From Actinomycetota bacterium (GTDB lineage Bacteria; Actinomycetota; Thermoleophilia; Gaiellales; Gaiellaceae): DNA of 38,900 bases. Of the stretch, positions 4,732-38,684 are shown in pieces; positions within the stretch are counted from its first letter, which is position 1, and each line of letters begins with the position of its first letter. The DNA is taken from assembly GCA_013817555.1 (NCBI GenBank), contig JACDCN010000001.1:1-38900 (forward strand). The letters run 5' to 3'. The notes below the pieces were generated by a model. It saw only the letters and a list, made by a program, of their open reading frames with translations. It was not told the DNA's origin and did not search any database. The position numbers and the translations under genes are program-made.

Positions 4732-4774
4732 CTGGTCAGATGCGGCGGCTAGCCTCCATTGGGCACTAGACGCC
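4732..4774 (-). promoter_or_regulatory. Conserved start-proximal leader module, copy B (no insertion)
   Basis: Minus strand reads GGCGTCTAGTGCCCAATGGAGGCTAGCCGCCGCATCTGACCAG, followed by AGGGCGGC and ATG 4723. See copy A. Confidence 0.6.
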
Positions 4775-4846
4775 TTACCTCGACAGAGCGTGCGGAATCC
4801 GCCTGTTTGAGCCAAAGTCTGCGGGCGGGTTTCTAGCGGCATGGAT

Positions 4847-7153: not shown

Positions 7154-7422
7154 TGCGGATCCCCCTCGACGCGAGCAAGCCCGCAGCGTGGGCACCAGTG
7201 AACGCGCTCCTGAGTCTGGGTGCGATTCCTACGATCGCTCGGAAGCGGAGCCTCGAAGCGCTCGGCGTACGACTCACGTATACGCCGACGGATCTTCCAG
7301 AGCGGAGTCATGCGCTCGGTGATCTCGTCGAGAGCTTTGAGGAAGTCGGCCTGTGCCTCCAAGACCTCACCCGTCTCGGGATGGATGAAGGGCACATCGA
7401 GGGCTGCCTGAGTCACGACCAT
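7150..7422 (-). CDS. Hypothetical protein
   Basis: The start is either ATG 7422 or GTG 7416 (a GTGA overlap with the stop at 7413-7415). A C-terminal CPRCG motif is present. Confidence 0.5.
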   Translation of the reverse strand: MVVTQAALDVPFIHPETGEVLEAQADFLKALDEITERMTPLWKIRRRIRESYAERFEAPLPSDRRNRTQTQERVHWCPRCGLARVEGDPQ

Positions 7423-7700
7423 TTCTCCAAGCATCCAGAGACGCAGCGCGGCCCATCATCTGGTGACCAGAGGATGAGATCACCCTTGCCAAACTCAGCA
7501 GAACAGACTGAGCAATGACCGCCGAAACGAGAGCGAATCTCTATCCAGCGAACGGCGGACTTAGGATTATCCCAGCCCAACAGACGTCGCTTCCAACCTT
7601 TCGACGGAGGCCATGACACACCCCACTCGGCTAGCTGTTTACGCGACCATCCACCCTTCGGAGAACGCCCTGCCTCGATCTGCTCCTCACTAAGCCTCAC
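7413..7700 (-). CDS. Hypothetical protein (95 aa)
   Basis: GTG 7700 forms a GTGA overlap with the primase stop. Contains HCSVCS...C..GC. Confidence 0.5.
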   Translation of the reverse strand: MRLSEEQIEAGRSPKGGWSRKQLAEWGVSWPPSKGWKRRLLGWDNPKSAVRWIEIRSRFGGHCSVCSAEFGKGDLILWSPDDGPRCVSGCLEKWS

Positions 7701-8707: not shown

Positions 8708-8916
8708 ACGAGCGTCTCCTGGTGCACGTTGATCCCGGCCTTGAATCGAGCGATGCAGGCCGTGCAAGCGAACTCGTCGTGAGCCTTGCGAAGAACGACA
8801 TCCGAGCCACCGCGCCGCGACTGCGCCGTGGCCTTGCGCTCCCAGCCCGAGATGAGCCGATACGCGAACGACTCGTCGAGTGTCTGCGAGCAGAACGTGC
8901 AGCTGACGTCGCTCAC
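8704..8916 (-). CDS. Small zinc-ribbon protein (70 aa)
   Basis: CTFC...CTAC cysteine pairs. It is coupled to the primase start. Confidence 0.55.
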   Translation of the reverse strand: MSDVSCTFCSQTLDESFAYRLISGWERKATAQSRRGGSDVVLRKAHDEFACTACIARFKAGINVHQETLV

Positions 8917-16522: not shown

Positions 16523-16981
16523 CTACCTCACCACCTCGCAGGTTTGCGTGGAGGACAACTCGGCATGGGCAATCTCTAGGTTCTCCCGTATCCGAACGAG
16601 TCGAGCCTTAGCTTCCCCGACGGGTGCGGCTTTGATCGCCAGCTTGGTCTCGATCAGGAACGGGACGACGAGCGCAGCGTCGAGCGTCGCCGTCGTGTTG
16701 CAGAGAGCGGCGATGACGCGGCGGTTCTCCCCCGTGAGCTGTCGCGTCTGGCGAGCCTGCCAAGCGACAACGAGGAGAACGAGGAAGGCGATGAGAACGA
16801 CAGCGGCGAAGGAGAGGGTGACGTTCCGAGCGAGCTTCCGACCGCGCGGCCCGCGCTCTCCCGGCGCACCCGGCTCTCCCTGAACGCCCCGGATTCCCTG
16901 CCCTTCGATCCCCTCGATTCCCTGGACGCCCTGGACGCCTTGCGGCCCTCGACTCCGGGGAGTCTCGCTCACGGTCGCCAC
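16523..16981 (-). CDS. Membrane protein with N-terminal collagen-like G-X-Y repeats
   Basis: GPQGVQGVQGIEGIEGQGIRGVQGEPGAPGERGPRG is followed by the TM segment LSFAAVVLIAFLVLLVVAW and an 85-aa C-terminal domain. The start is GTG 16981 or GTG 16972 (a GTGA overlap with the upstream stop). Confidence 0.65.
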   Translation of the reverse strand: MATVSETPRSRGPQGVQGVQGIEGIEGQGIRGVQGEPGAPGERGPRGRKLARNVTLSFAAVVLIAFLVLLVVAWQARQTRQLTGENRRVIAALCNTTATLDAALVVPFLIETKLAIKAAPVGEAKARLVRIRENLEIAHAELSSTQTCEVVR

Positions 16982-17418: not shown

Positions 17419-18027
17419 CTAGGCGAGTAGACGTTTGAGTTGCGCCCCGACGCTCGGAGCACCATGCGAGTAGTTCGTCTTGTGCGCGAGCTGCTTCCCC
17501 CTGCCGAGCAGCCGCTCGACGTTAATGCCGACATGGACGTGCGGACCGCCGCCGATCGAGTGGTTGAGGACGACGCCGATCTTCTCGCCCTTGTCGAACT
17601 TGCGGCCGGTGGCCGGTGCCGAGACGAGATGCCCGAACCAGTAGTCGAGCTTGCTCTTGCCGCTCGCGTAGAAGGCGTCGCCGGGACGGGAGCTCGACTG
17701 CCTCGTCACCGTGAGAGCTTCCGGCGCGATGATCACGCGGCCTGGGACGTAGGCGTCGTCGAAGGCGGGGTAGAGGGAGATGCCCTCGGTCGCGTGCGTC
17801 AGGTCGTGCAGAAGGACGCTCTTGCCGCCTTCCCATACAGGACCGAGAGCGGGCACCTTGTCCGTCGGCTTCGGTGGCTTGGGAGCGGGCTTGAGATCGT
17901 CGTCGAGGGCTTGCAGCGCACCGCACGCACGTCGCCAGTGACCGCCCGTAGGGTCGTAGCCTTCCTTGGTCAGCTTCAGCTCGGAGGTCGCCGCGGCGAG
18001 GAGCTTGCGGCGCTGCGTATCGGTCAA
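17419..18027 (-). CDS. M23/LytM-type peptidase (endolysin component)
   Basis: Contains GDAFYASGKSKLDYWFGHL...GEKIGVV...GGPHVHVG. TTG 18027 forms a TTGA overlap with the lysin stop. Confidence 0.7.
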   Translation of the reverse strand: MTDTQRRKLLAAATSELKLTKEGYDPTGGHWRRACGALQALDDDLKPAPKPPKPTDKVPALGPVWEGGKSVLLHDLTHATEGISLYPAFDDAYVPGRVIIAPEALTVTRQSSSRPGDAFYASGKSKLDYWFGHLVSAPATGRKFDKGEKIGVVLNHSIGGGPHVHVGINVERLLGRGKQLAHKTNYSHGAPSVGAQLKRLLA

Positions 18028-21202: not shown

Positions 21203-23632
21203 CTAGCCGACACCGAGATTCTTTCCGCCATGCCTGCCACGTCTGGATGAACTCGAGCGGCCAGCTCGCTTCTGAAGATCGCGCAAGACCACGCTGCCCA
21301 TCTCACGTCCGTCGAGGTTAAAGTGGACATGGATCGGAGGAACCGCGTCAGTAGTTCTGGTTGAAGACGCAAGGGGCGATCCCACGGCAAACCCGAACGC
21401 GCTTGTATGCGATCCGCTTCTGATGCCAAGGTTCCGCCGTCGGAGTTCTTCAGCCTGCTCCTGCGTGAGATTCAAACCCTTGAGAAGCTGCTGCGTCGAG
21501 CGGATGCCGCCGCGGGTGAACTCACCACCGATGTCGGATTCCTTGGAGCCCTCATTCAGCGCAGCGGCGATGTCGTTGAACATCTGCAGAATCGACGACC
21601 GGACTTCCTTGCCCACAGCCCCGAACTGACCCGCGAGCACCCTGGCGATTCCTGCGAGCTCGGAGCGAGTCTTGCCGGTATCGAGTGCCGTTCCTTTGAG
21701 CTGATCACGTAGAGAACCGAGACGCCGCTGGAGTGCCTGCGTACTCGGGGTCCGCTGGTCGCCCTCACGCGTGAGACCGATCGCCTCGAACTGCCTACCC
21801 TGCCGCTGCTGTCGCTGGAGTTGCCGCTGCTGTTGCTGGAGTCGGTTTCGCTCCTGAGCCAGATCAAAAAGCTGACGCTCGAGCTCGACCGTTCTTCCTT
21901 CGACGTCGACCTGCGCTCTGAGTGCCCGCTCCTGAGCAGCGATCGCCCGGAGATCGTCTTGCAAACCCGCCGTAGCCTCCGCGCGGTCACGTCGCAAGCC
22001 AAGAGTCTCCATCAGCTTGTCGAACTCCTCACGCTGCTTCTCAGCAGCGGTCTTGGCCGTTCGCGTGACGACAGCAGCAACTTTCGCCACCTGCGTGATC
22101 TGTCTAGCCTCCCGCGACCTGGACTCGATGACCTTAGTGACAGACTTGACCTGTCTAGCCCCGGTCGTGTCGTCCTCTGCTTCTTTCTCGAGCGCACGCC
22201 GACGATTGGCTGCTGCCCCTTCCTCGCGCTGCCCCGGAAGTTCGACACCTACTGCGGCGACGACCTTCTTCCCGTTCAGCGCGTCGAGCTCGCCGGCGAA
22301 AGAGCGTAGGTTTTCTCGCGCCACATTGATCTGATCGGACACGCCCTTGAAGCTGTCTCCGATAAAGGGGAGATGTGAGGCGGCATCAGCAACGAGAGAC
22401 AGACCACCAAGGAAGTTGTCGAGCGCCTTCACGATGATCGACACGCTGCGAGTGAAGACCTCGGCGAGCACCCGCACGATGTCGCTCATCTTCTCGATGA
22501 CGGGGATCGTGATCCTGAAAGCAGCCGGGATCACCTTCTCGAAGAGAAAGACGATCGTGGGCCGCGCCACTGTCCATATGGCAGCGAGCGATTCACCGAG
22601 GTTGGAGAGAATGTTCCGAAGGTTGCCGCTGTTGGCGTCGAAGATCTCTATGACGCTTGCCCACATGTTCTGAATGACCTGTACGACCTCGCGCACGACC
22701 GGAAAGACGTGCTGGCGAAGCGGCTCGAGAATCGAGGAGCTGATCCGCTGCAACTCGGGAAGCCTGCTGGTGAACGCATCGACGAGAGAGCTAAGAGCCG
22801 GACCGACAGCAGCGCTGATCCGCTGAACGCCCTGCTCGATCTCGGGGATGAAGTTGGCGAACGATCCCAGGACTCGCGCCAGTGGTTCAGCCACAGCCCC
22901 GACGAGGTTCCCGAATGCATTGCGGAACGCCTCACGGAGCTTCGTTAGTTGCCCCGGCAAGGTATCGCCGAGTGCCTTGGCCGACCCTCCGACCTGCGAC
23001 TCGACCTCCCGCAGAATGAGTTTCTGCGCGTCGAGCATTCGGTTCGTCTCGACGAGCGCCTTGATCGAATCGCGCTGCTTCTCCGTGAAGGTCACGCCGG
23101 CGCGAGCCAGCGCGGTCATGCCCCGCACAGGATCATTCAGCGCCTTGCCGAGCTGCTTGGCGGTCGTGTCGATGGCACCGAATCCTGCAACCGAAAGATC
23201 GACCGCAGCCTTCGTCGCCCGGTCGAAGACCTGATTGCCCTGACCGAGCTCGTTCCGCACATTCTTGAAGGTGAGGAGCAAGTTCGAGCCAGAGGCGACA
23301 AGTTCGTCGTCGATGCCGGAAAGGTTCTGTATCGCTCCCGCAAGACGGGTCACGTCCGAGGCTGTGACATTCGCGATCCCGCCCGTTGACTTGATGGCCG
23401 CATTGGTCTGCGCGGCAACCTTCTGCTGCTCAGAGAACTCGGCTATCCCCGCACGAAGCGCACCCGATACAGCGTTGATGCCGGCGCGAACACCCTCGAA
23501 GATGAACGCCGATTTGATGACTGAGCCAGCACCGATCGAGAAGCGCTGTGTGGCATTCGTCGAGCTCCGAAACGCGCGTAGAAGATCGCGCTCGTCACCG
23601 ATGATCTTTACGGTGAGCGTTCTGTCAGCCAC
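21203..23632 (-). CDS. Tape measure protein (809 aa)
   Basis: It has a long alpha-helical composition, TMP-like N-terminal motifs (...NAAIKSTGGIANVTASDVTRLAGAIQNLSGIDDE...LLLTFKNV...), a Q/R-rich coiled coil, and the expected position after the chaperone genes. Confidence 0.9.
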   Translation of the reverse strand: MADRTLTVKIIGDERDLLRAFRSSTNATQRFSIGAGSVIKSAFIFEGVRAGINAVSGALRAGIAEFSEQQKVAAQTNAAIKSTGGIANVTASDVTRLAGAIQNLSGIDDELVASGSNLLLTFKNVRNELGQGNQVFDRATKAAVDLSVAGFGAIDTTAKQLGKALNDPVRGMTALARAGVTFTEKQRDSIKALVETNRMLDAQKLILREVESQVGGSAKALGDTLPGQLTKLREAFRNAFGNLVGAVAEPLARVLGSFANFIPEIEQGVQRISAAVGPALSSLVDAFTSRLPELQRISSSILEPLRQHVFPVVREVVQVIQNMWASVIEIFDANSGNLRNILSNLGESLAAIWTVARPTIVFLFEKVIPAAFRITIPVIEKMSDIVRVLAEVFTRSVSIIVKALDNFLGGLSLVADAASHLPFIGDSFKGVSDQINVARENLRSFAGELDALNGKKVVAAVGVELPGQREEGAAANRRRALEKEAEDDTTGARQVKSVTKVIESRSREARQITQVAKVAAVVTRTAKTAAEKQREEFDKLMETLGLRRDRAEATAGLQDDLRAIAAQERALRAQVDVEGRTVELERQLFDLAQERNRLQQQQRQLQRQQRQGRQFEAIGLTREGDQRTPSTQALQRRLGSLRDQLKGTALDTGKTRSELAGIARVLAGQFGAVGKEVRSSILQMFNDIAAALNEGSKESDIGGEFTRGGIRSTQQLLKGLNLTQEQAEELRRRNLGIRSGSHTSAFGFAVGSPLASSTRTTDAVPPIHVHFNLDGREMGSVVLRDLQKRAGRSSSSRRGRHGGKNLGVG

Positions 23633-24684: not shown

Positions 24685-25101
24685 TTAGGTGCCGCCGCCG
24701 CTCGTGATGCCAGCTTCGTCGGCAGGCTTCGCCGCAAACGGCATGGTCGAGACCGAGCCGCGGGTGTTCGCAGGACCGAACTGGTTGATCGTGCAGTTGC
24801 CCGAGTAGGTTTCGGCTGCCGCGTTGAGCAGTCCATTCGGCTGCCACGAGATCGGCACGATGGCGCGCGTGGCGTGGATCGGATAAATGAGAGCCGCCAG
24901 TTCCGCGGTGTAGAACGCCTCGCCCGAGAATCCCTGGGTCGTACGCCCCGGCAGCGTCTCGTCGTTACCCGAGACCGAGAACCCCGAGACGTCTTCCTCC
25001 GAATGCTCGGACGAGAATCCGAACTGGCGGAAGAAGTTGGAAACGTCGGTTCCGTCGATGATGATCTTGTCGTGACGGGCGACGAGCTTGGTAAAAGCCA
25101 T
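24685..25101 (-). CDS. Major tail (tube) protein candidate (138 aa)
   Basis: It lies directly upstream of the G/GT chaperone. GGGAG RBS. A stem-loop follows the stop. The C-terminal tail is ...AAKPADEAGITSGGGT. Confidence 0.6.
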   Translation of the reverse strand: MAFTKLVARHDKIIIDGTDVSNFFRQFGFSSEHSEEDVSGFSVSGNDETLPGRTTQGFSGEAFYTAELAALIYPIHATRAIVPISWQPNGLLNAAAETYSGNCTINQFGPANTRGSVSTMPFAAKPADEAGITSGGGT

Positions 25102-25117: not shown

Positions 25118-25360
25118 CTAACGACTGAGGAGCCTTTCGGCTCCTCGTTGGTCTGGTGTATGTGGGCTGGCTAACCAGCCCTGGGGAAACTCGAAGCTCC
25201 CTGGTAAGAGCGCGGGCTCGACCCGCTCGAGGAGCACGATGTCTCCACGTCTGACCGCACGATGCTCGGCGTTCGGAGCGATCTCCGCGATGAACTCGGT
25301 GCCCGGTTCATGGCCCCGGTAGCGTCTGACTCCGATGACGCGGTAGTGCCCGTGCGTCAT
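25118..25360 (-). CDS. Hypothetical protein (80 aa)
   Basis: ATG 25360 forms an ATGA overlap with the glycosyltransferase stop. Confidence 0.5.
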   Translation of the reverse strand: MTHGHYRVIGVRRYRGHEPGTEFIAEIAPNAEHRAVRRGDIVLLERVEPALLPGSFEFPQGWLASPHTPDQRGAERLLSR

Positions 25361-26121
25361 GCCGCCACCAGTTCGCGGGCGTAGTGGGAGGACATCTCGT
25401 CGAGCGCATCGGCGGGGAAGACTTCGGCTAGCGTCTCGAACGGGTCACCGAAACTCTCTCCGCGATGCCGCGCCTCGATCGTGCCGTAGGGATTGAGCTG
25501 GATGCCGGGGCTCTTCCAGTCGACGATCTGGCGGGGGTCGATGTCCCGATGCTCTACGCGGAGCCGAGGGTGAGCCTTTCGCAGATTCAGCAGCATCGAG
25601 GTATCACACGCTCGCTGGCGATCCTCGTCCGCAGGGCGGAAGTTGCGGTGGGCCATGACCTGACGCGGATACACCCGGATTCCGCAGCCGCCTTCGTAGT
25701 CGAGGAAGCGGGTTGTCATCTCCCTGCCGTCCTCCCGCACGAACGAGATGCGCTGGAAGCCGAGCACGGTGTTAGCTCCGGGAAGGTCGAGGAAGATCTG
25801 GTGATCAACCCAGTCATCCGAGCCACAGGGGGCAACGTAGTCAGCCGGTCGCGGGTTGTAGCGAGGGTCGCACGCGAGCTGGATCCCATCGTTGAAGCGC
25901 CGCGACACGAAGTGGTTATCCCGCTCGATCGTCCCGAACCCGAAGACGTCATCTGTTCGTTCTCGCAGCTCCTCGAGGTTGTCGCGGTCGGCAATGACCA
26001 CAGCCGTCGCTTCGATACCTTCTTCGCTCAGCGCGTCGCACGTTCGTCGCAACTGGCGCAGACAGATCGCCGCAAGCGGGAGCCGCCCGTGTACGGGCAC
26101 ACAGAACCAGAGAGATGGCAT
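25357..26121 (-). CDS. GT-A fold / family-2-like glycosyltransferase
   Basis: ORF 25357..26160 trimmed to ATG 26121 (ATGA overlap). The N-terminus is WFCVPVHGRLPLAAICLRQL, and CGSDDW is DxD-like. Confidence 0.7.
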   Translation of the reverse strand: MPSLWFCVPVHGRLPLAAICLRQLRRTCDALSEEGIEATAVVIADRDNLEELRERTDDVFGFGTIERDNHFVSRRFNDGIQLACDPRYNPRPADYVAPCGSDDWVDHQIFLDLPGANTVLGFQRISFVREDGREMTTRFLDYEGGCGIRVYPRQVMAHRNFRPADEDRQRACDTSMLLNLRKAHPRLRVEHRDIDPRQIVDWKSPGIQLNPYGTIEARHRGESFGDPFETLAEVFPADALDEMSSHYARELVAA

Positions 26122-26867
26122 CAGGCAGCAACCGCCACGGGGAACGCCTGCTTCCACCAATCGCTGTGGATCAGAACATGAAGCTGGCCCGCTTCGCCCA
26201 GCCGTTCGGCCACCACATCGAACGGCTGCGACCAGCGCCCGCTCGAATCCGAGAGGTATTCGCCACGCGAGAGCCAGTTCGGGTCGTACTCGAGACCATA
26301 GGCGCGACGGGAGATCGGCTTCAGCGGGCAGATGACCCCTTCGTGCTCGAGTAGTCGATCAAGCTTCCCGTAAGCCGGTCGGGGCGACTCCGTAAACAGT
26401 TCGTCGTTGACGAAGTGGGAGGAGTGGCAGAGGTTGTCTCCGTGAGCCACCGCACCGACCACACGCACACCCGCCGAGCGTAGTTCGGAGAGCGCTTCGG
26501 TCAGGATCTCGTGAGGATCACGACGCTGCCGCAACGCCTCAGCGATTGCGTTGACATGGATTCCGACCTCGTGTCCTAGCTCCTCGAAGCGGGGGGCGTA
26601 GGCAAGCATTTCCTCGCCCCAGTAGTGCGAGTCGTGGAGCAGGAAGTAGGTCGAGGCGTAGCCGTGCTCGAACTCCCACTCGGCGAAGGCAAGCGCGGTC
26701 TCGAAGGAGCCGAGGTTGTCGTCGATGTCGTGCCGAAGCCCGATCACATTGGTCCCCGTGTCGCCCTTGAAGACGTCACGCATCGGCACCACGCGGTCGG
26801 CCCGAGACAAAAGCGCCGAGTCGAGCTCGACGAGGTCAGCAGCAAGAAATGGCTCCTTGGCTCTCAC
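26121..26867 (-). CDS. Polysaccharide deacetylase (CE4/NodB-like)
   Basis: RHDIDD (TFDD-like motif 1), ELGHEVGIHV (H-x-x-x-H motif 2) and VLIHSDWW (LxH motif 5). GTG 26867 forms a GTGA overlap. Confidence 0.7.
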   Translation of the reverse strand: MRAKEPFLAADLVELDSALLSRADRVVPMRDVFKGDTGTNVIGLRHDIDDNLGSFETALAFAEWEFEHGYASTYFLLHDSHYWGEEMLAYAPRFEELGHEVGIHVNAIAEALRQRRDPHEILTEALSELRSAGVRVVGAVAHGDNLCHSSHFVNDELFTESPRPAYGKLDRLLEHEGVICPLKPISRRAYGLEYDPNWLSRGEYLSDSSGRWSQPFDVVAERLGEAGQLHVLIHSDWWKQAFPVAVAA

Positions 26868-27352
26868 TTCTTCAGCACCAACCAGAAGACGCCAGCCGTG
26901 CGAGCGTAGAGCGAGTCCGTCCAGCCGGCGGGGACGGTGTAAGTCCCTAGCTGCTGGTTCGTGACTGTGACCGTAACGGCCTTCTCAGCGAGCGCACACC
27001 AAAGACCGAGACTCTTGAGCGACCGCTGCTCGGTTTCGCCGGTAAATGTGTCGACAGAGACGACGTCCCATTTCACGTCATCGAGCCAGCGCTCAGCGAA
27101 CTCCCAGGCGTCGTCCTCGAAGAATCCCCACTCCTCGGGGTAGAGCTCCTGCATCTCGCTCAGGCGTTCGCCGTCCGAGTCGACGCAGGTTGTCAGCAAG
27201 CCCGCCTCGGCGAAGTGGACGGCATCGTTATGTCCGAGGAACGCTGCCGAGAACAGACACAAGCCCGTCTCGCAACCATCGAGCAGGTATGTCGGATACG
27301 GACGAGCTTGCATCGCGACATGCTCGAGCGTGGGATAGGTCACAGTTCCCAT
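26864..27352 (-). CDS. Rossmann-type methyltransferase-like protein (tentative)
   Basis: YLLDGCETG (motif-I-like), TCVDSD (motif II), DAWEFA and WDVVSVDTF (motif IV-like). The call is weak without a profile search. Confidence 0.4.
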   Translation of the reverse strand: MGTVTYPTLEHVAMQARPYPTYLLDGCETGLCLFSAAFLGHNDAVHFAEAGLLTTCVDSDGERLSEMQELYPEEWGFFEDDAWEFAERWLDDVKWDVVSVDTFTGETEQRSLKSLGLWCALAEKAVTVTVTNQQLGTYTVPAGWTDSLYARTAGVFWLVLKK

Positions 27353-27981
27353 GCGACCTCCATCGGCTCAAAGCCAAGCTTCGTCTTGAAGTAACGCAAG
27401 CCATCCGTACCGGAGTCAGCGCGGTTGTAAACGAAGTACCCACCGAGCGAAGCCTGCTTCTCAACCGCTCCCTGAAAGAGCAGGTACATGACGTCCTTTG
27501 CGAGATGGTCGCCATGACCGAGGATGCTCGATACCAACGCCAGGTCGCCGACGCGGTAGAGCCAGAGATACGCGGCCAGCGTCCCTCGCACGTCGAGCAC
27601 GCCGTAGGTACGGATCGCATGCCGCGGGCACTCGTACTCGGGAAGCGTGAGGTAGTGATTCCGTTCCCGGTAGCCCCCGCTCATCGGACGGCCTTGACGC
27701 TCTCCGAGCGATGTGTTGATCGCGTAGATGTGCTCGTCGAAGTCCTCTCGTGCGATCTCGGCGAAGTGGTAGCCGAAACGCTCAGCGCGGTCGGCACGCT
27801 TGCGGGCTGTACGGTGCTCTTCCCGCCAGGAATCAACGCTAGAGGGCACAGGAAGCACGGAGCACGTCTCGTAGCCCTTGGACAACTGCTTGTGTAGGGG
27901 GAACGCGAACGGGGCGCAGGACGCGAAGTCGCAGGCGGTCTCTAGGGAGATCGCCACGCCGGTCATCGTCTCGGTCGTCAT
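27340..27981 (-). CDS. FemAB/CelD-type GNAT-fold acyl- or aminoacyl-transferase-like protein
   Basis: The pattern ...RKRADRAERFGYHFAEI...AYLWLYRVGDLALVSSILGH...DVMYLLF...GLRYFKTKLGFEP resembles Acetyltransf_6/FemAB-like proteins. ATG 27981 forms an ATGA overlap. Confidence 0.55.
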   Translation of the reverse strand: MTTETMTGVAISLETACDFASCAPFAFPLHKQLSKGYETCSVLPVPSSVDSWREEHRTARKRADRAERFGYHFAEIAREDFDEHIYAINTSLGERQGRPMSGGYRERNHYLTLPEYECPRHAIRTYGVLDVRGTLAAYLWLYRVGDLALVSSILGHGDHLAKDVMYLLFQGAVEKQASLGGYFVYNRADSGTDGLRYFKTKLGFEPMEVAWEL

Positions 27982-28433
27982 GAGCGGGCCGGGATCACCA
28001 GGAATCGCCAGACGACGCCAATGTGAACATTGGCTCCATCAATGGTGGGCACGAGCACGAACCCGGATTCGCTGACGAGCTCGACATCAGAAGCGTGCCC
28101 GCCAATCGTCGGATCGTCGTAGAGAGCTTGAACGAGACAGAGATCATCCTCGTCGTCTTTGAGAGCGAGAAGAACGTCTTGGTTCGCCTCATGGTCGGTC
28201 GGCGAGACGCGAGCCCGGACGTTGAGGAAGTAGCCACCCATGACCTCGGCTGCGACCTCTCCGAATGATGCGGTGTCATCGTCTCGCGACGGGTCCGCGG
28301 GGAAGATGTCGATTGAGGGAGTGGTGGGGTTGAGCACCATGCGCGGCTCCACCTGAAAGTCCCAACTGGAACCCGCAACGGCCTGGCTGATCTGATCCGC
28401 CATCTCGTCCATGATCGTTCTGAGAGCACTCAA
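27978..28433 (-). CDS. Hypothetical virion protein in the neck position (151 aa)
   Basis: It follows the gp6-like adaptor. The start is uncertain (TTG 28433 or ATG 28412). Confidence 0.45.
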   Translation of the reverse strand: MSALRTIMDEMADQISQAVAGSSWDFQVEPRMVLNPTTPSIDIFPADPSRDDDTASFGEVAAEVMGGYFLNVRARVSPTDHEANQDVLLALKDDEDDLCLVQALYDDPTIGGHASDVELVSESGFVLVPTIDGANVHIGVVWRFLVIPARS

Positions 28434-28452: not shown

Positions 28453-29064
28453 TCAAGCTAGCCCCCAGCGCTCTTTTAACGGCGCAAGCATGAAGGCGTA
28501 CTTGTCCCAGGAGTTACGGGCGAGATGGGTGGACCCAAACTCAGAGCCGATGCCCGCAAGACCGAGAGGCACTTCCTGGAGGAACCACCACTCAGCCGCC
28601 CGCTGGAGGTTCACCTGCACGACCAGAGCGGGCGGTGAGGCATAAGGCTCCACGAGATCAAGCTCCATGTCGATCTCGAACGCCGCCGCCTCGATGACTC
28701 GCCTGAGCGACTGCCACCTCTGGCTCGCGTTCACCTTCAGGATCCGGGCCAGTTCCTCCACGGTCGCATAGGCCGCTCGACCGGCGACGTTCTGCACTGG
28801 AAGAGTCGGCTGCTCCTCGTCGCCGCTCAGGTCCCGGAAGACGAGTCGATACCAGAGCTCGAGCGTGTCGGAAGCGTTCTCCGTCGTGAGCGAACGCGAA
28901 GCCGGAAACTCGGGATCGGCATCGACGGGAGAGATCGTGATCGTGTCGATGACGTTCCACGGTCCAGCTTCGAGCGCTGCCTCCTCGACGTCGATCTCCG
29001 TCCAGGGGTTGCCGTCGTAACGCGGGGCTGGGGTATATCCGAGGAAGGTGATGACCTGGCTCAC
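28453..29064 (-). CDS. Head-tail connector/adaptor (gp6-like) with an extra N-terminal domain
   Basis: The C-terminal half YATVEELARILKVNASQRWQSLRRVIEAAAFEIDMELD... matches the gp6-like adaptor pattern. The N-terminal 95 aa or so form a beta-rich extra domain. GTG 29064 forms a GTGA overlap. Confidence 0.65.
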   Translation of the reverse strand: MSQVITFLGYTPAPRYDGNPWTEIDVEEAALEAGPWNVIDTITISPVDADPEFPASRSLTTENASDTLELWYRLVFRDLSGDEEQPTLPVQNVAGRAAYATVEELARILKVNASQRWQSLRRVIEAAAFEIDMELDLVEPYASPPALVVQVNLQRAAEWWFLQEVPLGLAGIGSEFGSTHLARNSWDKYAFMLAPLKERWGLA

Positions 29065-31178
29065 GAGAGCACCGGATCCTCTGCGTTCTGTATGCGTCCG
29101 ATCGTTATCACCTCGTCAGAGAGATTCCCGCCGGCTTGCTGCTCGGCGTGCTCGATGTAGCCGACCGTGATCGGTCGGTTCGCGATGTGGCCCAGGTTGC
29201 CGTAGGCCAGGAAAGGTGCAGGCATCGGCCCGAGGGTGACCGCATCGCGCGAAGGCGTAGGTGCAGATGCCGTCGCGGTAGCAGCCCCAGGAAAGACCCT
29301 GATCGAGACAAGGGGGATTCCAGCACTCGCGGTAGCCGACGCTGGCTGAGCGAAGACGGTGGCACTGCCAGGAGTGGTAGCGGTGACCCCAGGAGTCGGA
29401 GCGTTCGTGCTCGCATTGGCAGAACCGGGGAAGACCCTGATTTCCGGTATGGGCGAGAGGCCGGAGCCTGTCCCTGCGGCTGCACTAGGTAGAACCCGAA
29501 CCTCGAGAGCGGGGGCCGGTGCGCTTGCGTCTGCGCTTGCGGCAGGGGAAGCGACAGTGTCGTCCACCCGTCGAGCCGGTACAGGAGCAGACGACGTTCC
29601 GCTGGACGCGCCTGGGAAAAGGGTGAGCTTCGGAAGTGGCGCAGGGCCGGAAGCAGTCGCCGAAGCCGCAGGCGAGATGACCGTGCGATCTGCAGTTGTC
29701 GAGAGCGCAGGAACCGGAGCGCTTGCGTTCGCGAGCGCCGATGCTGGAGCAACCCTGACCCCTGGAACAGGAACAGGTCCCGAGCCTGTCGCACTCGCAG
29801 CACCGGGGGCCACGGTGACCCTTGGGAGCGGAGCCGGCGCAGAGGCGGTCGCCGATGCTGCTGGAGCAGCAACCGTTCCACCAACCGACGACGAGATACT
29901 AGGAATAGGAGCGCTCGCATTGGCGATTCCGGCTGCCGGAGAGACCCTGACCTCTGGAACTGACGTAGGCCCGGAAGCGGTGCCTGTGCTCGATGCGGGA
30001 AGGACACGAACCTGGGGAACCGGGCTGGGTGCTGAAGCCGTAGCAGACCCCGCAGGAACGGCAACCGTGTCATCCGTACGGAGACTCGGGACAGGGCCGC
30101 TCGCAGTCGCAGAAGCGCTCCCAGGGGCCACGGTGACCTTCGGGAGCGGTATCGGTGTAGAGCCTGTCGCACTCCCAGCTGTGGGAAGAACCGTGATCTT
30201 CGGAAGCGGGAGTGGAGCGCTTCCCGTGGCGCTTGCCGCTGGAGCGACAACGGTGTCGCTGACACGAACGACAGGAATCGGCGCAGAGGACGTGGCTGAA
30301 GATGCGGCAGGAGCAACTGTGACCTTCGGAAGAGGGATAGCCCCAGAGCCAGTCGCGCTTGCAGCGGCTGGAGAGACCCGAACCCCTGGAACGGGAATCG
30401 GCCCTGAGCCTGTCGCACTTGCAGCCCCAGCAGGGGCCACCGTGACCTTGGGAAGTGGGATCGGCGCAGAAGCCGTCCCAGAGGCCACAGGCGTGACGAC
30501 GGTGGCATTCGTCGCGATGACGAGCGTGGGTATTGGTGCACTTGCCGTTGCGCTGGCAGCAGCAGGGAGAACCGTGACCTTTGGAACCGGGACGGCAGCC
30601 GAAGCTGTGGCGCTTGCAGAGAGCGGAGCAACAAGAATGTCCGCAGCCGAGACACCGTTGGACGCGGTAGCCGCAGCCGCTGCAGGAGCCACTCTGACCG
30701 CAGGAACAGGTGACGGGCCTGAGCCCGTCGCAGATGCTGCAGCAGGAAGAACCCGTACTCCAGGAACTGCAAGCGGAGCCGAGGCGGTTGCACTGGCGGC
30801 GACAGCAATGATCGTGTCATTGGTGCGAAGGGTCGGAGTCGGTCCCGATGCTGTCGTGCTGGCCGCAGCAGGGGCAACAGTGACTTTCGGAAGCGGGAGA
30901 GGAGCGGAACCATTAGCGCTCGAAGCCGCTGGAAGAATCGTGACCTTCGGAACAGGAAGCGACGCAGAACCAGTCCCACTTGAAGCCGCAGGAGCAATGG
31001 TGACCCTCGGAACCGGAACCGCTGCGCTTCCAGTGGCGCTCGCGGCGTTCGGAACAACGATGGTGACGTTGACCGGGCCTGCAGTAGTCGGTACCAGGCC
31101 GCCGAGGAAGCGCGGTCGAGGATCAACACGAATCGGCCTCTCACGAAGCCGTCCCGCGTAAAGAAGACGAGAGGCCAC
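29061..31178 (-). CDS. Tandem-repeat A/P/S/T/V/G-rich protein (705 aa), candidate virion fibre or decoration protein
   Basis: GGGAGG RBS lies 8 nt before GTG 31178, and the stop is coupled to the adaptor start. There are about 30 units such as VTVAPAASSATGSGPIPLPK, with unique N-terminal (about 40 aa) and C-terminal (about 65 aa) ends. Confidence 0.75.
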   Translation of the reverse strand: MASRLLYAGRLRERPIRVDPRPRFLGGLVPTTAGPVNVTIVVPNAASATGSAAVPVPRVTIAPAASSGTGSASLPVPKVTILPAASSANGSAPLPLPKVTVAPAAASTTASGPTPTLRTNDTIIAVAASATASAPLAVPGVRVLPAAASATGSGPSPVPAVRVAPAAAAATASNGVSAADILVAPLSASATASAAVPVPKVTVLPAAASATASAPIPTLVIATNATVVTPVASGTASAPIPLPKVTVAPAGAASATGSGPIPVPGVRVSPAAASATGSGAIPLPKVTVAPAASSATSSAPIPVVRVSDTVVAPAASATGSAPLPLPKITVLPTAGSATGSTPIPLPKVTVAPGSASATASGPVPSLRTDDTVAVPAGSATASAPSPVPQVRVLPASSTGTASGPTSVPEVRVSPAAGIANASAPIPSISSSVGGTVAAPAASATASAPAPLPRVTVAPGAASATGSGPVPVPGVRVAPASALANASAPVPALSTTADRTVISPAASATASGPAPLPKLTLFPGASSGTSSAPVPARRVDDTVASPAASADASAPAPALEVRVLPSAAAGTGSGLSPIPEIRVFPGSANASTNAPTPGVTATTPGSATVFAQPASATASAGIPLVSIRVFPGAATATASAPTPSRDAVTLGPMPAPFLAYGNLGHIANRPITVGYIEHAEQQAGGNLSDEVITIGRIQNAEDPVLS
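29260..31060 (-). repeat. Degenerate coding tandem-repeat array with a period of about 57-63 bp
   Basis: GTGACCTT-type landmarks recur about every 60 bp. No stop codons occur in three of the six frames (ORFs 29061..31178, 29108..31180 and 29359..31161). Confidence 0.8.
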
Positions 31179-31180
31179 AC

Positions 31181-34080: not shown

Positions 34081-35334
34081 CTAGCTCGCGGTCGTAATCA
34101 TCGCGAAGGAGCCGTCGTCCACGACGGCAGCCTCGAACGCTCCGATCAGACCGACCTCGACGCCACCGATCGCCGGCTCGACGACCCGGAGCTCGACCGG
34201 AGCACCAGCCGTCTCAGCGACGAGCAGGCCGTCGTTGTCGCCAACCACGACGACACCGGCGTCCATGCCGCGGGACACGACGACGTTGAGCGGGCCAACT
34301 CCCTGTGCGGACACGGACAGGAACTGCGTGAACGCGTCCGAAGTGAGCCCGAGCAGGTAGCCGTAGCGGTCCGGGGCCATGTAGAGCGTGTCAGCCAGCC
34401 GACCTGAGTTGGCGAACACCTCTGCGTAGCCAGCACCGATCGCCGTCATGAACTGCGCGAACGTCGGCGTCGGGCCGATCGGCGCGGCGATGTTGTTCGA
34501 GAACGCCGAGCCCTGAAGCACCTGAGCCGCGTCCTGCTCCGTCTTCAGCGCGTAGTCGGCTGCGACGAGACGGAACCACAGGTCGAGCGCGTTCGGCGTC
34601 GACCAGTTGATCGCCTGCCATGACAGGTCACCGCCACCGAGGTACGTGGAAGCGCTCTTCGTGACCATGTCGATGACCATTCCGGTGTTGCCAGCCTCCG
34701 TCTTCTGAGTCGCCTGAACGGCCACGACGGGAGGCGTGGTGATGACCGGGTAGGTCAAGACGCCCCGCTCGAGCGAAGCACGCATTGCGCTCTCCACAAT
34801 CGGACGGGACGAGTCGATGATCTGGAAGATTTCCGCGATGTGCTGCGGGGGGATCAGGCCGGCGACGTTGGACGACAGCGTGTTGGCCGGGACTCGCTTG
34901 AGGAGCTGCAGCCGCTCCTTCGCACGCTGCAATTCCATCGGGTCACCGAGCTGCATGGCGATCTTGCCGACCTCACGGCCCTGGCCGGAGAGGATGACGT
35001 CGCGGGCATACGCAGCCATCGTGCGGTAGATGACCTGGTCGCCTTCGACATCGATGCCATCCTGCGTCCCGGCAAGCGTCCTACGGATCGCCTTCGACGC
35101 TTCGATCGCTAGCCGATTCTTCTCGACAGAATCGGAGAGGTTCTTGATCTCCACGTCGAGGTCAGTGGCTCGCTCGCGGTACATCGTGACCTGGGTGTTT
35201 TCCGCTTCGGAAAGCACCTTGTCATCACGAGTCTCAACAGCGGCGAGCAGGTTTTCATGCAACTGCTGGTTGACGTCTCGCTCGTCGAGGAGACGTGAGA
35301 GCCGCAGTTCGCTCTGTGTAGTTGGTGCGCTCAT
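34081..35334 (-). CDS. Major capsid protein, HK97 family
   Basis: 417 aa. An N-terminal coiled-coil delta-domain-like 100 aa or so is followed by an HK97-like body. It follows the prohead protease. Confidence 0.9.
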   Translation of the reverse strand: MSAPTTQSELRLSRLLDERDVNQQLHENLLAAVETRDDKVLSEAENTQVTMYRERATDLDVEIKNLSDSVEKNRLAIEASKAIRRTLAGTQDGIDVEGDQVIYRTMAAYARDVILSGQGREVGKIAMQLGDPMELQRAKERLQLLKRVPANTLSSNVAGLIPPQHIAEIFQIIDSSRPIVESAMRASLERGVLTYPVITTPPVVAVQATQKTEAGNTGMVIDMVTKSASTYLGGGDLSWQAINWSTPNALDLWFRLVAADYALKTEQDAAQVLQGSAFSNNIAAPIGPTPTFAQFMTAIGAGYAEVFANSGRLADTLYMAPDRYGYLLGLTSDAFTQFLSVSAQGVGPLNVVVSRGMDAGVVVVGDNDGLLVAETAGAPVELRVVEPAIGGVEVGLIGAFEAAVVDDGSFAMITTAS

Positions 35335-35338: not shown

Positions 35339-36079
35339 TTATTCCTCCGAAGTTGGCGTTTCCGTCGGGTGGCGGGTGCCGTCTTCGGGGGTGCCGGTCT
35401 CAGCCGGGGTGTCCGTTTCTGCGGGGTGCGCTTGGTATCGCTGCGGTAGACGAATGCCGAGACGTCGGCAGCGTTCGATCATCTCGGGATCAGGCTCGAC
35501 GGGAAGAAGTTCCTCGTCGAGCATGGCTGACTCGCGGATTGCGAGAACTTGTGCGCCGGAGTAGGCGGGCTCGCGGCAAAGCGCGATGCCTACCAAGTGC
35601 GCCTTCACGCGCCGGACGATGCCGTCGCGGTTGCGTACGGACTTCTTCTCGACGGCCTCGAGCGAGATGCCGCCGAATACGCCCTCGCGCACGAGCATGA
35701 GTGCCTTGTCGCCGTCGGGCGTCTCGTGCAGCTTGAAGGATCCGTACAACCCGTCCTCACGCTCAAGCAGCGCCTTGCCGTGTCCGACGATGCCGGCGAT
35801 ACCCGCCTGGTGCTCGACGTTGACGAGCACGCGATTCGCGGCGCTCGACTGACCCTCGAACGCACCAGGCGACCACTCCTCGGTATACGGCATGCCTTTA
35901 GCAACGCCGCCAAGACCGTCGTTGTGGGTGATGCGTTCGCCGTACGGAACGACCCGCACGTCAATGGTGCGGCCGTCACCTTCCGACATCTCAGCGGCGT
36001 ATGCCCTACGAATAAGGCCGCTTTCGCGGCCCTGGTCTTCACTCTCGACGTTGTCGAGTTCTGTCTCCAGCGTGCTCAT
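35339..36079 (-). CDS. HK97-family prohead protease (S78-like)
   Basis: Contains ...IDVRVVPYGE... and GHGKALLEREDGLYGSFKL. ATG 36079 forms an ATGA overlap with the portal stop. The C-terminal tail is P/T/E-rich. Confidence 0.88.
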   Translation of the reverse strand: MSTLETELDNVESEDQGRESGLIRRAYAAEMSEGDGRTIDVRVVPYGERITHNDGLGGVAKGMPYTEEWSPGAFEGQSSAANRVLVNVEHQAGIAGIVGHGKALLEREDGLYGSFKLHETPDGDKALMLVREGVFGGISLEAVEKKSVRNRDGIVRRVKAHLVGIALCREPAYSGAQVLAIRESAMLDEELLPVEPDPEMIERCRRLGIRLPQRYQAHPAETDTPAETGTPEDGTRHPTETPTSEE

Positions 36080-37215
36080 CCGGTACCTCCGATTACTGTC
36101 AACGGCCGCGCCGGTTGTTGCGCGGGTGACGCCTTCGCGACCTGGGAAAGTTGAGGGTCGTTGTCGTCCGATAGATCGCTGAGCTCGGCGAACGTGTCAG
36201 CGGCGTCGAATGCGACCCATTGACCGCGCGGAAGCATCTGCGCGCTGAACGCGTTGGCGATGCGAGTCGCCGTCGTCCGAAGCTCGAAGCGCCACCACAT
36301 CTCGCCGAGCGCGGCAGGGTTCTGATACGTGAGCCCGCCCTGCAGCGCCATATTCAAGAGCACCGAGGGAACGCCGAAAGCGGTCGCCAACGCCCGCGCA
36401 TTGAACTCCTGCGTGTCAAGGAGCGAGAGATCGGCCGGGTTGAACGACAGGGGTACGAAGTCGAGCTCCGGTGGAAGAACCGGCGGGAGCCCACCGCGGC
36501 TCGTGGTGGCTGCGCCCCACTGTGCCTGTAGCGCTTCAGCCTGCTCCTTCGACAGCTTGCGCTCCGACTTGAGAACCGCCTGCGGGATGCCGCCCGTGTT
36601 CACGGTCATCGACTGGTTCCCGGCTGCGAGCAACCCCCAAGCCGTCTGCGCGTACGCACGAAGCGCGGAGCTTCCGTGCGCCGCATTCGACGGGTTGCGG
36701 TCGATCTGCACGACGCGGCGGGGGTCTAGGATCTCTTCGCCGAGCTTCCACTCGCGCGCACCGTCCACCATGCGAATCTCCACGCCGCTCGAGTCGAGAA
36801 CGGTCCACGTTCGCGCGAAGCCGTCAGCGTAGAAGTCGGTGATGTATTGGCAAGAGAAGCCCCAGCCGTAGAGCTGCGCGACGATCGCGTGTAGGGCGTC
36901 ACCGATGCCGTTCGGATACCAGTTCGGATCCGGGCTCGACACCCACGCCGGTTCGGGTGCTCCGTGGAACTCGAGCGGCATCGAGGCGATCTGCTGCGCG
37001 TTCAACTGAATGCAGCGGTTGGCGACCCACACGCGGTCTGTGAGCGCTGCGTTGCCGGGGAACCATGCTCCGGTCGTCATCCCCTGCTCGGCGAAGAAGT
37101 TGGGGATGACCGAGTTGAACAGATCCATACGCGTGCCCTCGAGCGGTTCGGGCTCCACGCGCTTTAGAAGTTCCTCTCGAGCCGACACCAGATCCTCGAG
37201 GTAGGTGCGGTTCAA
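36076..37215 (-). CDS. Portal protein, HK97 family
   Basis: Portal-like sequence (...QLNAQQIASMPLEF..., GGIPQAVLKSERKLSKEQAEALQAQW). The start is probably TTG 37215 (TTGA overlap with the terminase stop) or ATG 37128. The ORF-track start 37431 lies inside the terminase gene. Confidence 0.88.
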   Translation of the reverse strand: MNRTYLEDLVSAREELLKRVEPEPLEGTRMDLFNSVIPNFFAEQGMTTGAWFPGNAALTDRVWVANRCIQLNAQQIASMPLEFHGAPEPAWVSSPDPNWYPNGIGDALHAIVAQLYGWGFSCQYITDFYADGFARTWTVLDSSGVEIRMVDGAREWKLGEEILDPRRVVQIDRNPSNAAHGSSALRAYAQTAWGLLAAGNQSMTVNTGGIPQAVLKSERKLSKEQAEALQAQWGAATTSRGGLPPVLPPELDFVPLSFNPADLSLLDTQEFNARALATAFGVPSVLLNMALQGGLTYQNPAALGEMWWRFELRTTATRIANAFSAQMLPRGQWVAFDAADTFAELSDLSDDNDPQLSQVAKASPAQQPARPLTVIGGTG

Positions 37216-38684
37216 AAGATCGCCACCTCTCCGACGTCGTTCTCGGTCGCCGACCAGAGCGCGAGCGTGGCAGCGACGAGTGGCGAAATGTTCACGGTCG
37301 ACTTGGTGCGTGACCACGCCCAGCGATCGACGAGCGGACGAGCCTTGGCACCGCGGATCGCAGAGTCGAGCTCCGGCTGCCCCAGGTGCCTGAGCGTCTT
37401 CTCGCCCACGCAGTCGACGAAGAGACCGCACGCCTTGCCGTAGTCGCCCGAGTCCATTCGCTTGACCTTGATCCCGGCCTCGTCGAGACGATTGGCGATG
37501 GCTGCACTGGGCCCGAAACCGTCGCAGACCACTTCGGCGATCTCGTGCGTTCGGTACAGGTCGATCAGCCGATCGACGAGCCAGCCGGTGCCCGAGCGGC
37601 AGGCGATCACTTCGACCATCATCTTGCCCGTCTCGCTCCTACCGGCAGCGACGATCGAGGAGTGACGTTCCGGCGAAACATCGCAGGAAACGCACACCGG
37701 ATCAATGAGCACTTCGTCGGGATCGAGAACGTCCGCCCACAGCTCGGGAGAGATGAGAACATCGGCGGAACCGTCCGTCGCCGGCCAGTCACCCACGCCC
37801 AGAAGCTCGACAGCGAACGTGCGAGGATCCAGCGAGCGCTGCTCTCGCGCCATGTGCTCCTCGGAGATGCGGATGCCTAGACCTGGGTTCGACGAGCGCC
37901 AGAGCTCGACGTCGAGTGCCTGCGCTTCCGAAAGATCGTCGGGGTGCTCTCCCTCGACTGAAAACTCGATGTATCCCAGCGACTCATCGTCTCCCCGCAG
38001 CCCGCGTTCACGAATACGAGCCCATACGATCCCGTGGTCGTGGATCTCTTGATCGACGGCCGAACCGGTGTAAACGAGTTGCGGGCCACGCGGAGCCTTG
38101 GACGCGCGCAGCGTCGGCATCATCGCGCCGTGCGATGCGCCGTTGATGATCATGGCCTCGTCCAAATTCAGGTAGTCGACGCCGGCGAAACCACGGAGAC
38201 CTGACTTCGTACGAGTGACGAAGCGCATGCGGGTTCCGTCGGGCATGTAGATCCCCTCTTGCCCATGCGAGCGGCGGATCTGCTTGACCTTGAGGTCAGC
38301 GCTCTCGACCAGTTGCTCGAGACGTAGGAAATGCTCCTCCGAGGTCTTGAACTCATGGGCCGAGTGAACTCCCAGCTTCTCGCCGGTGATGCCGGCCAGC
38401 AGCGCGAGCTCTCGCACCTCGAGGACGACGCCCTTCCCGTTCTGACGGGTGACGTTGATCCCGAACTCGAAGTGCAGCCAGCGCTCATTCGCTCCGACCG
38501 ACATGAGATCGCGTAGCGCCTCGGCTTGCCAGTCGTCGAGAATCATCCCAGCCGCTGCCGCGAGCTCGATCGCCTCGTCTGCAAGGGTCGACGTCCAGGC
38601 ATGAACCGCGTGGATGCGCGGGCCGGTCGCGAGAGCTACCACCGGCGCGACTGCTTCCTCGCCTGCTGGGTTGCTCTGTTGCAA
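37212..38684 (-). CDS. terL: Terminase large subunit
   Basis: 490-aa ORF with a terminase-like ATPase and nuclease layout (DDWQAEALRDLM, GKGVVLE, VDYLNLDEAM). It lies between the HNH and portal genes. The start is TTG 38684 or GTG 38642. Confidence 0.9.
   Translation of the reverse strand: MQQSNPAGEEAVAPVVALATGPRIHAVHAWTSTLADEAIELAAAAGMILDDWQAEALRDLMSVGANERWLHFEFGINVTRQNGKGVVLEVRELALLAGITGEKLGVHSAHEFKTSEEHFLRLEQLVESADLKVKQIRRSHGQEGIYMPDGTRMRFVTRTKSGLRGFAGVDYLNLDEAMIINGASHGAMMPTLRASKAPRGPQLVYTGSAVDQEIHDHGIVWARIRERGLRGDDESLGYIEFSVEGEHPDDLSEAQALDVELWRSSNPGLGIRISEEHMAREQRSLDPRTFAVELLGVGDWPATDGSADVLISPELWADVLDPDEVLIDPVCVSCDVSPERHSSIVAAGRSETGKMMVEVIACRSGTGWLVDRLIDLYRTHEIAEVVCDGFGPSAAIANRLDEAGIKVKRMDSGDYGKACGLFVDCVGEKTLRHLGQPELDSAIRGAKARPLVDRWAWSRTKSTVNISPLVAATLALWSATENDVGEVAIF

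Follow-up and report, generated by a model that had tools for sequence, protein, structure and literature searches.

The window analysed here, the complete metagenomic contig JACDCN010000001.1 of 38,900 nucleotides, encodes a siphovirus-type phage with its late operon on the minus strand, and four consecutive open reading frames (ORF1 to ORF4) that resemble enzymes lie within this operon. The interpretation that we favour, with somewhat better than even confidence, is that the four genes form a phage-encoded, late, cytoplasmic system for glycosylating the phage's own virion proteins and for subsequent editing of the attached sugar. All four ORFs are present on the minus strand, as an earlier interpretation of the DNA without database searches (the sequence-only reading) had proposed:

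27340..27981, minus strand: ORF1, 213 amino acids (aa), probable GNAT-clan acyl- or aminoacyl-transferase (Acetyltransf_6 or FemAB/CelD-like)
26864..27352, minus strand: ORF2, 162 aa, divergent class I S-adenosylmethionine (SAM)-methyltransferase-like Rossmann protein
26121..26867, minus strand: ORF3, 248 aa, CE4/NodB-superfamily barrel, putative de-N-acetylase with non-canonical active-site motifs
25357..26121, minus strand: ORF4, 254 aa, GT-A fold, GT2-like glycosyltransferase (GT)

The modelled structure of ORF4 allows it to be described with confidence as a GT-A glycosyltransferase. The AlphaFold2 model (pLDDT 93.4) returned 70 fold matches in the Protein Data Bank (PDB) at E<=1e-3, mainly GT-A glycosyltransferases with some IspD-type nucleotidyltransferases, and these include chondroitin synthase, TarP, GlcAT, b4GalT7, GlfT2 and A64R of the chlorovirus PBCV-1. 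A profile built from ORF4 orthologs matched the GT2 structure 3bcv (E=0.006) with the DxD motif of GSDDW (residues 100-104) aligned to DSDD, and D102 and D103 of this motif are invariant in 121 sequences. The GT-A/GT2-like identity proposed from the GSDDW motif is thus borne out by both the modelled fold and the conserved DxD. No Pfam match to Glycos_transf_2 (PF00535) was obtained for ORF4 or for 10 of its orthologs.

The ORF3 model (pLDDT 96.4) adopts a fold that we confidently assign to the CE4/NodB-like barrels. In Foldseek comparisons with the PDB, CE4-family entries account for six of the seven top matches (probability 0.96-1.0, TM-scores of approximately 0.3-0.5), including 2vyo (E=3.3e-4), 2j13, PdaC (6h8l) and BA3943, with Bc1960 and BA0150 lower down; in a catalogue of viral structures, the sole protein that resembles it is uncharacterised and comes from an uncultured phage. 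Residues R45, H46, D47, D49, H99, E100, H104, N106, H142, G143, H230, H234 and D236 are invariant in 101 sequences, and the invariant polar residues mark the C-terminal strand ends of the barrel, the location of the five CE4 motifs (H46-D47-x-D49; H99...H104; H142; D207...W212; H230...H234-x-D236). The three motifs quoted in support of a CE4 deacetylase by the sequence-only reading, RHDIDD (45-50), GHEVGIH (98-104) and LIHSDWW (232-238), are all present, and their key residues, like those of the ORF4 motif, are invariant among the homologs. At the position of CE4 motif 1 (TFDD), RHDIDD ends strand 41-48 with H46, D47 and D49 invariant and is Asp-rich rather than carrying the canonical DD, while motif 5 (LxH) is present as LHVLIH234SD, which closes strand 229-234 with L232 and H234 invariant. 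Motif 2, H(S/T)xxH, departs further, as in GHEVGIH104-V-N-A-I108 the second histidine is replaced by Ile108. The fold speaks for the proposed CE4 deacetylase and the missing second metal histidine speaks against it, leaving deacetylase activity plausible but unproven; judging from the conserved positions, H99, H142 and H230 might stand in for the missing metal ligand. On the modelled structure, we regard ORF3 as a plausible, predicted de-N-acetylase with a non-canonical site. Neither ORF3 nor 12 orthologs matched Polysacc_deac_1 (PF01522) in Pfam, and the ORF3 profile found no match among PDB sequences; single-sequence searches of the PDB yielded only noise, such as a spurious match to ParE.

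ORF2 had been called Rossmann methyltransferase-like, and at the profile level it does resemble the class I SAM-methyltransferases. A profile of its 70-sequence family returned SAM-methyltransferases as all of its top five PDB matches (2fhp, 3c0k, 2as0, 2igt and 1wxw; E 0.003-0.03), with an alignment that spans motifs II to IV, comprising the acidic residue of beta2, motif III and a DPP-like motif IV. The corresponding segments in the window protein are TCVDSD, DDAWEF and WDVVSVDTF. D58, D81 and D101 are invariant or nearly so. The glycine-rich motif I (GxGxG) is degenerate, reading LFSAAFLG against a family consensus of LFxAGFxG, and the one Pfam indication for the family is a weak Methyltransf_25 match in the ORF2-like region of the fused relative P0326. 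Profile similarity thus points to a divergent class I SAM-methyltransferase.

ORF1 is the weakest of the four assignments, and the sequence-only reading of a FemAB/CelD-type GNAT fold was stronger than the matches, all of which are sub-threshold, can carry. The window protein scores 14 bits against PF13480 (E=0.056; gathering score 22 bits), sub-threshold matches to the same family occur in 4 of 12 orthologs (best E=0.011), residues 131-205 align weakly with an AAC(3) GNAT protein in a single-sequence PDB search, and distant homologs give weak matches to PF13420 and PF00583 (E=0.13). Where they can be compared, these GNAT-clan matches fall on the same half of the protein, and Massilia homologs are named in UniProt as 'BioF2-like acetyltransferase domain-containing'. 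Taken together, the sequence matches suggest that ORF1 is probably a GNAT/FemAB-like acyl- or aminoacyl-transferase.

The four genes are tightly integrated into the virion operon, which they join by overlaps with the putative neck genes at both ends, in agreement with the translational coupling to structural genes that had been proposed. The junctions are ATGA at 27981, a 13-nt overlap at 27352, GTGA at 26867 and ATGA at 25360, as originally described; the exception is the ORF3/ORF4 junction at 26121, which had been given as ATGA and is instead TGATG with a 1-nt overlap. All orthologs start with MPSLWF or MKSLWF, which supports the ATG at 26121 as the start of ORF4 over an upstream TTG at 26160. 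Neither a promoter nor a terminator of its own flanks the cassette, the counts of such signals being at or below shuffle expectation, and its GC content at third codon positions (0.77-0.78) and codon usage match those of the neighbouring structural genes. No signal peptides or transmembrane segments are predicted in the four proteins, which are thus all predicted to be soluble and cytoplasmic; such a location suits substrates that are themselves produced in the cytoplasm and speaks against action on mature wall polymers.

The arrangement is equally stable across related phages, and it is not due to chance. All four ORFs occupy the same slot in each of the 11 related viral contigs found first and, in a wider survey, in 26 of the 30 clade loci that span the slot, with ORF2 undetectable in two clade loci, and the cassette diverges at about the rate of the capsid. 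In all related loci in which an 80-aa ORF was detected, it comes after ORF4, including a rearranged locus, L030 (IMGVR_UViG_3300037070_002929, 454-8898), in which the order is terL, ORF1, ORF2, ORF3, portal, protease, major capsid protein and adaptor, and, after the adaptor, ORF4, the 80-aa ORF, the g27978 homolog and the tail tube. Here, ORF1 to ORF3 separate the terminase from the portal gene, and ORF4 stands with the 80-aa ORF among connector genes, so that all have stayed within the virion module. Two further explanations of the cassette were discarded: a recent moron origin is ruled out by the absent promoter and terminator, the matching composition and the presence in 26 of 30 loci, and mis-called neck or structural proteins are ruled out by the enzymatic folds of ORF3 and ORF4, both of high confidence.

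The four proteins and six neighbours gave no significant match in Pfam, PHROGs and NCBIfam scans, and neither tblastn with each of the four ORFs nor blastn with the region found a match in 50,697 phage records. Metagenomic homologs are abundant, with 503 for ORF3, 1,275 for ORF4 and, for ORF2, 289 representatives at 50% clustering. The clade hosts are probably actinobacteria. A contig of a Nitriliruptoraceae metagenome-assembled genome (MAG; locus L013, JBBDSV010000026.1) was rejected as firm host evidence as its bacterial-phage junction looks abrupt and may be an artefact of assembly or binning. At approximately 7941-8750 of this locus, a C-terminal capsid fragment and phage genes directly adjoin genes of bacterial origin, one of them a truncated LeuA-like ORF, and the junction may be either a degraded prophage boundary, and thereby a host clue, or a chimeric assembly.

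Three independent lines of evidence, namely domain fusions, cellular contexts and the neighbours found in related phages, indicate that the four families act jointly in a sugar pathway. A homolog search with the four proteins concatenated, which was of low sensitivity and missed the window's own proteins, returned only two metagenomic proteins. P0002 (863 aa) combines an ORF3-like and an ORF1-like domain with an unassigned C-terminal region, and P0001 (984 aa) has two ORF3-like domains on either side of a Sulfotransfer_3 domain; both layouts are consistent with a logic of deacetylating and then substituting an amine. In a further protein, P0275, Glycos_transf_2 is fused to an ORF2-like domain. 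In cellular genomes, full-length chromosomal ORF1 homologs of Micromonosporaceae (Catellatospora sichuanensis, L014 3964-11094; a Micromonosporaceae MAG, L015 7683-13454) stand between TarS-like GT2 proteins with a TarS linker or GT4 proteins and large proteins with a DMFA2_C domain (E down to 1e-218), a domain that Pfam describes as N,N-dimethylformamidase beta-subunit-like. These clusters may represent a cellular module that glycosylates, de-acylates and re-acylates. Finally, the same slot in related phages holds canonical GT4 (E=3e-15) and Methyltransf_23 genes and small GT-like ORFs, as well as genes for collagen-like or Laminin_G_3 proteins.

The relatives differ from the window in further insertions. 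Many have extra ORFs of approximately 195-218 aa between ORF2/ORF1 and ORF3 (L002 7336-7917, L008 6892-7485, L005 7445-8047, and L006 8591-9187 and 7951-8604), which are not found in the window and show GT-A-like N-termini (for example 'VTACLVTRGD...IVWDNS') with no significant Pfam match. Between ORF3 and ORF4, relatives carry collagen-like (G-x-y) proteins (L003 2333-5611, L002 8561-9928 and L008 8162-9319) and, in L002 (10279-11076), an inserted Laminin_G_3/ConA-like protein. L002 and L008, in which the capsid region is covered, lack the variable module between capsid and adaptor; with the insertions inside the cassette, this absence suggests a link between the enzyme cassette and the module for fibre or decoration.

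Candidate acceptors are encoded in the same operon. Across 86 loci, hardly any variation is seen in the C-terminus of the capsid, ...ITTAS, and its end in the alignment coincides with that of the major capsid protein of the Cluster O mycobacteriophage FoulBall (...PLVGS). Similarly, each of the 26 clade sequences examined has Thr or Ser as the last residue in the C-terminal tail of the putative tail tube. These conserved Ser/Thr positions are candidate glycosylation sites, for which the sequence conservation is circumstantial. The 705-aa protein encoded upstream of the connector genes is a different type of candidate, built of about 29 copies, in tandem, of a 20-residue unit (ASATGSAPxPxPKVTVAPAA). 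Its autocorrelation shows peaks at lags of 20 and 62, the latter a 62-residue super-period, and it is composed of 22% Ala, 15% Pro, 12% Ser and 10% Thr. Relatives carry other repeat or collagen-like proteins at this position or within the enzyme cassette, and the collagen-like ones together with the S/T-rich repeat protein are further candidate acceptors. At the DNA level the repeats are strongly diverged, such that Tandem Repeats Finder (TRF) detects only 2.3 copies, and GC and AT are strongly skewed in the region, two other frames of which contain long spurious ORFs (29108-31180 and 29359-31161).

In the mechanism that we propose, ORF4 would transfer a sugar, probably an N-acetylhexosamine, from a nucleotide sugar to Ser or Thr, the likely sites being the tails exposed at the C-termini of the capsid (...ITTAS) and tail-tube (...GIT..T) subunits and/or the S/T-rich repeat protein. 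ORF3 would take off the N-acetyl group and expose the amine, which ORF1 would re-acylate, possibly with an aminoacyl group; as its closest family is Fem-like, an aminoacyl-tRNA donor is conceivable. ORF2 would methylate the amine or a hydroxyl. We infer the donor sugar, the acceptor proteins, the order of the steps and their convergence on one shared glycan, as we do the fold of ORF1. Extended to the clade as a whole, the idea becomes that an abundant group of uncultured, probable actinobacterial siphophages places an edited amino sugar on the virion surface by a dedicated, phage-encoded, Nod-factor-like pathway, which would be the first case of post-transfer glycan editing, by deacetylation and re-acylation, on a phage particle, and would involve four protein families that no curated family covers; we put this forward tentatively, as a possibility less likely than not.

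The closest parallel is found in the Cluster O mycobacteriophages, to which the head module of the window is related. The window capsid is 26% identical over 92% of its length to Cluster O capsids, the phage collection holds just 37 records with a relative of it, all from Mycobacterium phages, of which those that could be placed belong to Cluster O (the Corndog family), and the large terminase subunit (TerL), portal and protease are homologous to Cluster O proteins as well. FoulBall encodes an O-methyltransferase and three GTs between portal and protease, within the structural operon. The sequence-only reading had not recognised such a set between neck and tail genes as a described system; the novelty of the placement was thereby overstated, as the Cluster O set shows that an enzyme cassette in a morphogenesis operon is already known. 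Virion glycosylation in mycobacteriophages was reportedly described by Freeman et al. in 2023, with the cassette of the Cluster O phages Corndog and FoulBall and the GTs of the Cluster F phage Che8. Three reports (PMC12619734, PMC12363180 and PMC11600133) place O-glycans on the capsid and tail-tube C-termini of Cluster O, F and C phages.

The two systems share phage-encoded GT and methyltransferase genes embedded in the structural operon with overlapping start and stop codons, homologous head-module proteins, and capsid and tail-tube C-termini that end in Ser or Thr. They differ in slot (neck/tail in the window clade versus portal/protease in Cluster O) and in the number of GTs (one versus three), and the window enzymes have no detectable homology to GTs of the Che8 gp110 or Corndog gp38 type or to the O-methyltransferase, so the parallel is one of analogy. 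Moreover, glycans are reported on Cluster O virions, whereas those of the window clade are predicted. What is new in the window is the putative editing pair, a CE4-like putative deacetylase and a GNAT-like putative acyltransferase that the cited papers and the FoulBall annotation do not list for the mycobacteriophage systems, together with four protein families that have no match in about 50,000 phage genomes and a large clade of uncultured phages that carry the cassette as a core feature.

Other known pathways offer analogies for the chemistry. In the tailoring of Nod factors, the GT2 enzyme NodC, the CE4 enzyme NodB, the SAM-dependent N-methyltransferase NodS and the N-acyltransferase NodA act entirely in the cytoplasm: a GlcNAc glycoside is made and de-N-acetylated, and the freed amine is N-methylated and N-acylated. 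The window cassette would match this pathway in all four enzyme classes and, plausibly, in the logic of the steps, but its presumed acceptor is a protein rather than a chitooligosaccharide, and ORF4 is a small soluble GT-A protein where NodC is a membrane-bound processive synthase. No Nod families were detected by Pfam in the four proteins, and since nothing reached Pfam thresholds the resemblance is, as had been stated from the outset, one of analogy and not homology. A comparable order of events is found in heparan-sulfate NDST-type enzymes, which deacetylate and then re-substitute the amine; by analogy, P0001 joins deacetylase-like domains to a sulfotransferase and P0002 an ORF3-like to an ORF1-like transferase domain, although both are large cellular or metagenomic multidomain proteins. 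Chloroviruses and giant viruses likewise encode cytoplasmic GT-A enzymes for virion glycosylation, as illustrated by A64R among the ORF4 fold matches, and PBCV-1 also encodes methyltransferase and acetyltransferase tailoring steps. These are, however, eukaryotic giant viruses with an unrelated capsid, N-linked or atypical glycans and no sequence homology to the window.

Several observations weigh against the proposal of virion glycosylation and editing. All four proteins stay below the Pfam, NCBIfam and PHROG thresholds, profile searches found no match between the window enzymes and the O-methyltransferase and GTs of FoulBall (gp33-36), neither the ORF1 ortholog profile nor a broadened version of it matched anything in the PDB, and the clade is known only as uncultured phages. 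For ORF3, the replacement of the second metal histidine is compounded by the nature of its best fold matches: the PDB title of BA3943 calls it a pseudoenzyme, and 2vyo, another of these matches, is not known to have demonstrated activity. In addition, the closeness of the ORF4 fold to TarP and the teichoic-acid-type clusters around ORF1 homologs fit a cell-wall glycopolymer equally well as target. As the main alternative, the cassette might accordingly modify a teichoic-acid-like or other wall polysaccharide of the host envelope, or its cytoplasmic lipid-linked precursor, and so change the receptor, either for superinfection exclusion or against the adsorption of progeny to debris, in the manner of the prophage enzyme TarP. 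TarP, a prophage-encoded wall-teichoic-acid GlcNAc transferase, is among the best ORF4 fold matches, the cellular ORF1 homologs adjoin GT2 proteins with the TarS linker domain, and a tyrosine-recombinase-like protein noted by eye at 4847-5776 (minus strand) makes lysogeny and a temperate lifestyle possible. We nevertheless regard an envelope target as unlikely, if worth serious attention, since the cassette has no promoter, terminator or compositional signature of a moron, is translationally coupled to neck genes, is a core feature of the clade that diverges like the capsid, stays within the structural module even where relocated (L030), and under late expression would have little time for wall remodelling.

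It is also conceivable, though we think quite improbable, that there is no single pathway, with some of the proteins serving as dead scaffolds or assembly factors or acting by direct acetylation or methylation of virion proteins. The departure of ORF3 from the CE4 metal motif and its resemblance to CE4 pseudoenzymes, the degenerate motif I of ORF2, the unproven fold of ORF1 and the two loci with undetectable ORF2 all fit such a mixture, as does the methylation described for a mycobacteriophage tail protein (PMC13445384). Set against this are the invariant His, Asp and Glu residues at the C-terminal strand ends of the ORF3 barrel in 101 sequences, the conservation of the acidic methyltransferase residues across an ORF2 family with 289 representatives, and the fusions that tie ORF1 to ORF3 and ORF2 to GT2. 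By far the least probable alternative, one to which we give very little weight, is hypermodification of phage DNA, in which the cassette would glycosylate a modified base and decorate it further ahead of packaging. The GNAT-like Mom protein of phage Mu provides a precedent for a DNA modifier encoded among late genes. One report (PMC12619734, citing Pyle 2024) states that phage GTs often target DNA. However, no hydroxymethylase or other base-modification gene was noticed in the window, which was inspected for these by eye only, the cassette lies among head and neck genes outside the replication module, and both the CE4-like fold and the genomic surroundings of cellular homologs indicate saccharide substrates.

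The virion-directed system that we favour would have several implications. Phage virion glycosylation has been recognised only recently, in a few mycobacteriophage clusters with enzyme sets composed of GTs and an O-methyltransferase. If correct, our proposal would extend it to a widespread environmental phage lineage, would mean that phages not only attach a sugar but also edit it by deacetylation, re-acylation and methylation, and would provide a functional context for four uncharacterised protein families. Glycan shields change the antibody recognition of therapeutic mycobacteriophages (PMC12363180, PMC11600133), and new tailoring enzymes could for this reason serve as engineering parts. The domain fusions and the cellular neighbourhoods of ORF1 further hint at an unrecognised module in the synthesis of actinobacterial wall glycopolymers, in which a sugar is deacetylated and then N-substituted.

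The remaining features of the late operon, in the order of the operon, are as follows, with several small ORFs separating the capsid gene from that of the repeat protein:

37212-38684, minus strand: terminase (TerL), the first gene in the listed order
36076-37431, minus strand: portal (PF04860, E=1e-29)
35339-36079, minus strand: S78 prohead protease
34081..35334, minus strand: major capsid protein, 417 aa, homologous to Cluster O mycobacteriophage capsids; candidate glycosylation substrate
29061..31178, minus strand: 705-aa repeat protein; alternative candidate substrate (fibre or decoration)
28453-29064, minus strand: putative head-tail connector, 203 aa, labelled by position only; upstream of the cassette
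27978-28433, minus strand: putative head-tail connector, 151 aa, labelled by position only; directly upstream of the cassette
25118..25360, minus strand: 80-aa ORF, small neck protein or GT partner; follows ORF4 with an ATGA overlap
24685..25101, minus strand: putative tail tube, 138 aa, directly upstream of the chaperone-like ORFs and the tape measure; candidate glycosylation substrate
between putative tail tube and tape measure, minus strand: two chaperone-like ORFs
21203-23632, minus strand: tape measure

The 'neck' and 'major tail' labels of the genes flanking the cassette are based on gene order only. For the proteins at 28453-29064 and 24685-25101, ortholog profiles found no relative of solved structure in the PDB and single-sequence scans found no Pfam or PHROG family. 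The 203-aa connector is similar in size and position to the head-to-tail adaptor of FoulBall (201 aa), and homology between the two was not detected. In three loci (L013 8750-9166, L068 3529-3942 and L069 4893-5306), a close homolog of the putative tail tube (59-64% identity) stands directly behind the capsid and before the adaptor, which makes the 'major tail protein' label less secure; either the gene has changed its position or this family of small proteins has a second role, for example in decoration.

Inspection by eye revealed additional genes elsewhere in the window, all on the minus strand. A C5-cytosine DNA methyltransferase with PPCQ and ENV motifs is encoded at 4040-4723, an M23-peptidase-like protein, possibly an endolysin, at 17419-18027, and a small protein that combines a collagen-like G-x-y stretch with a hydrophobic segment at 16523-16981. 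The 563-aa protein at 13911-15602 begins with a hydrophobic segment, followed by a pectate-lyase-like core, thrombospondin-type Asp-rich repeats, a (PPPTTTE)n linker and a C-terminal FN3-like region, and it adjoins a 413-aa beta-helix-like protein (12724-13965). The last two proteins resemble polysaccharide depolymerases, which suggests a host that is encapsulated or produces exopolysaccharide.

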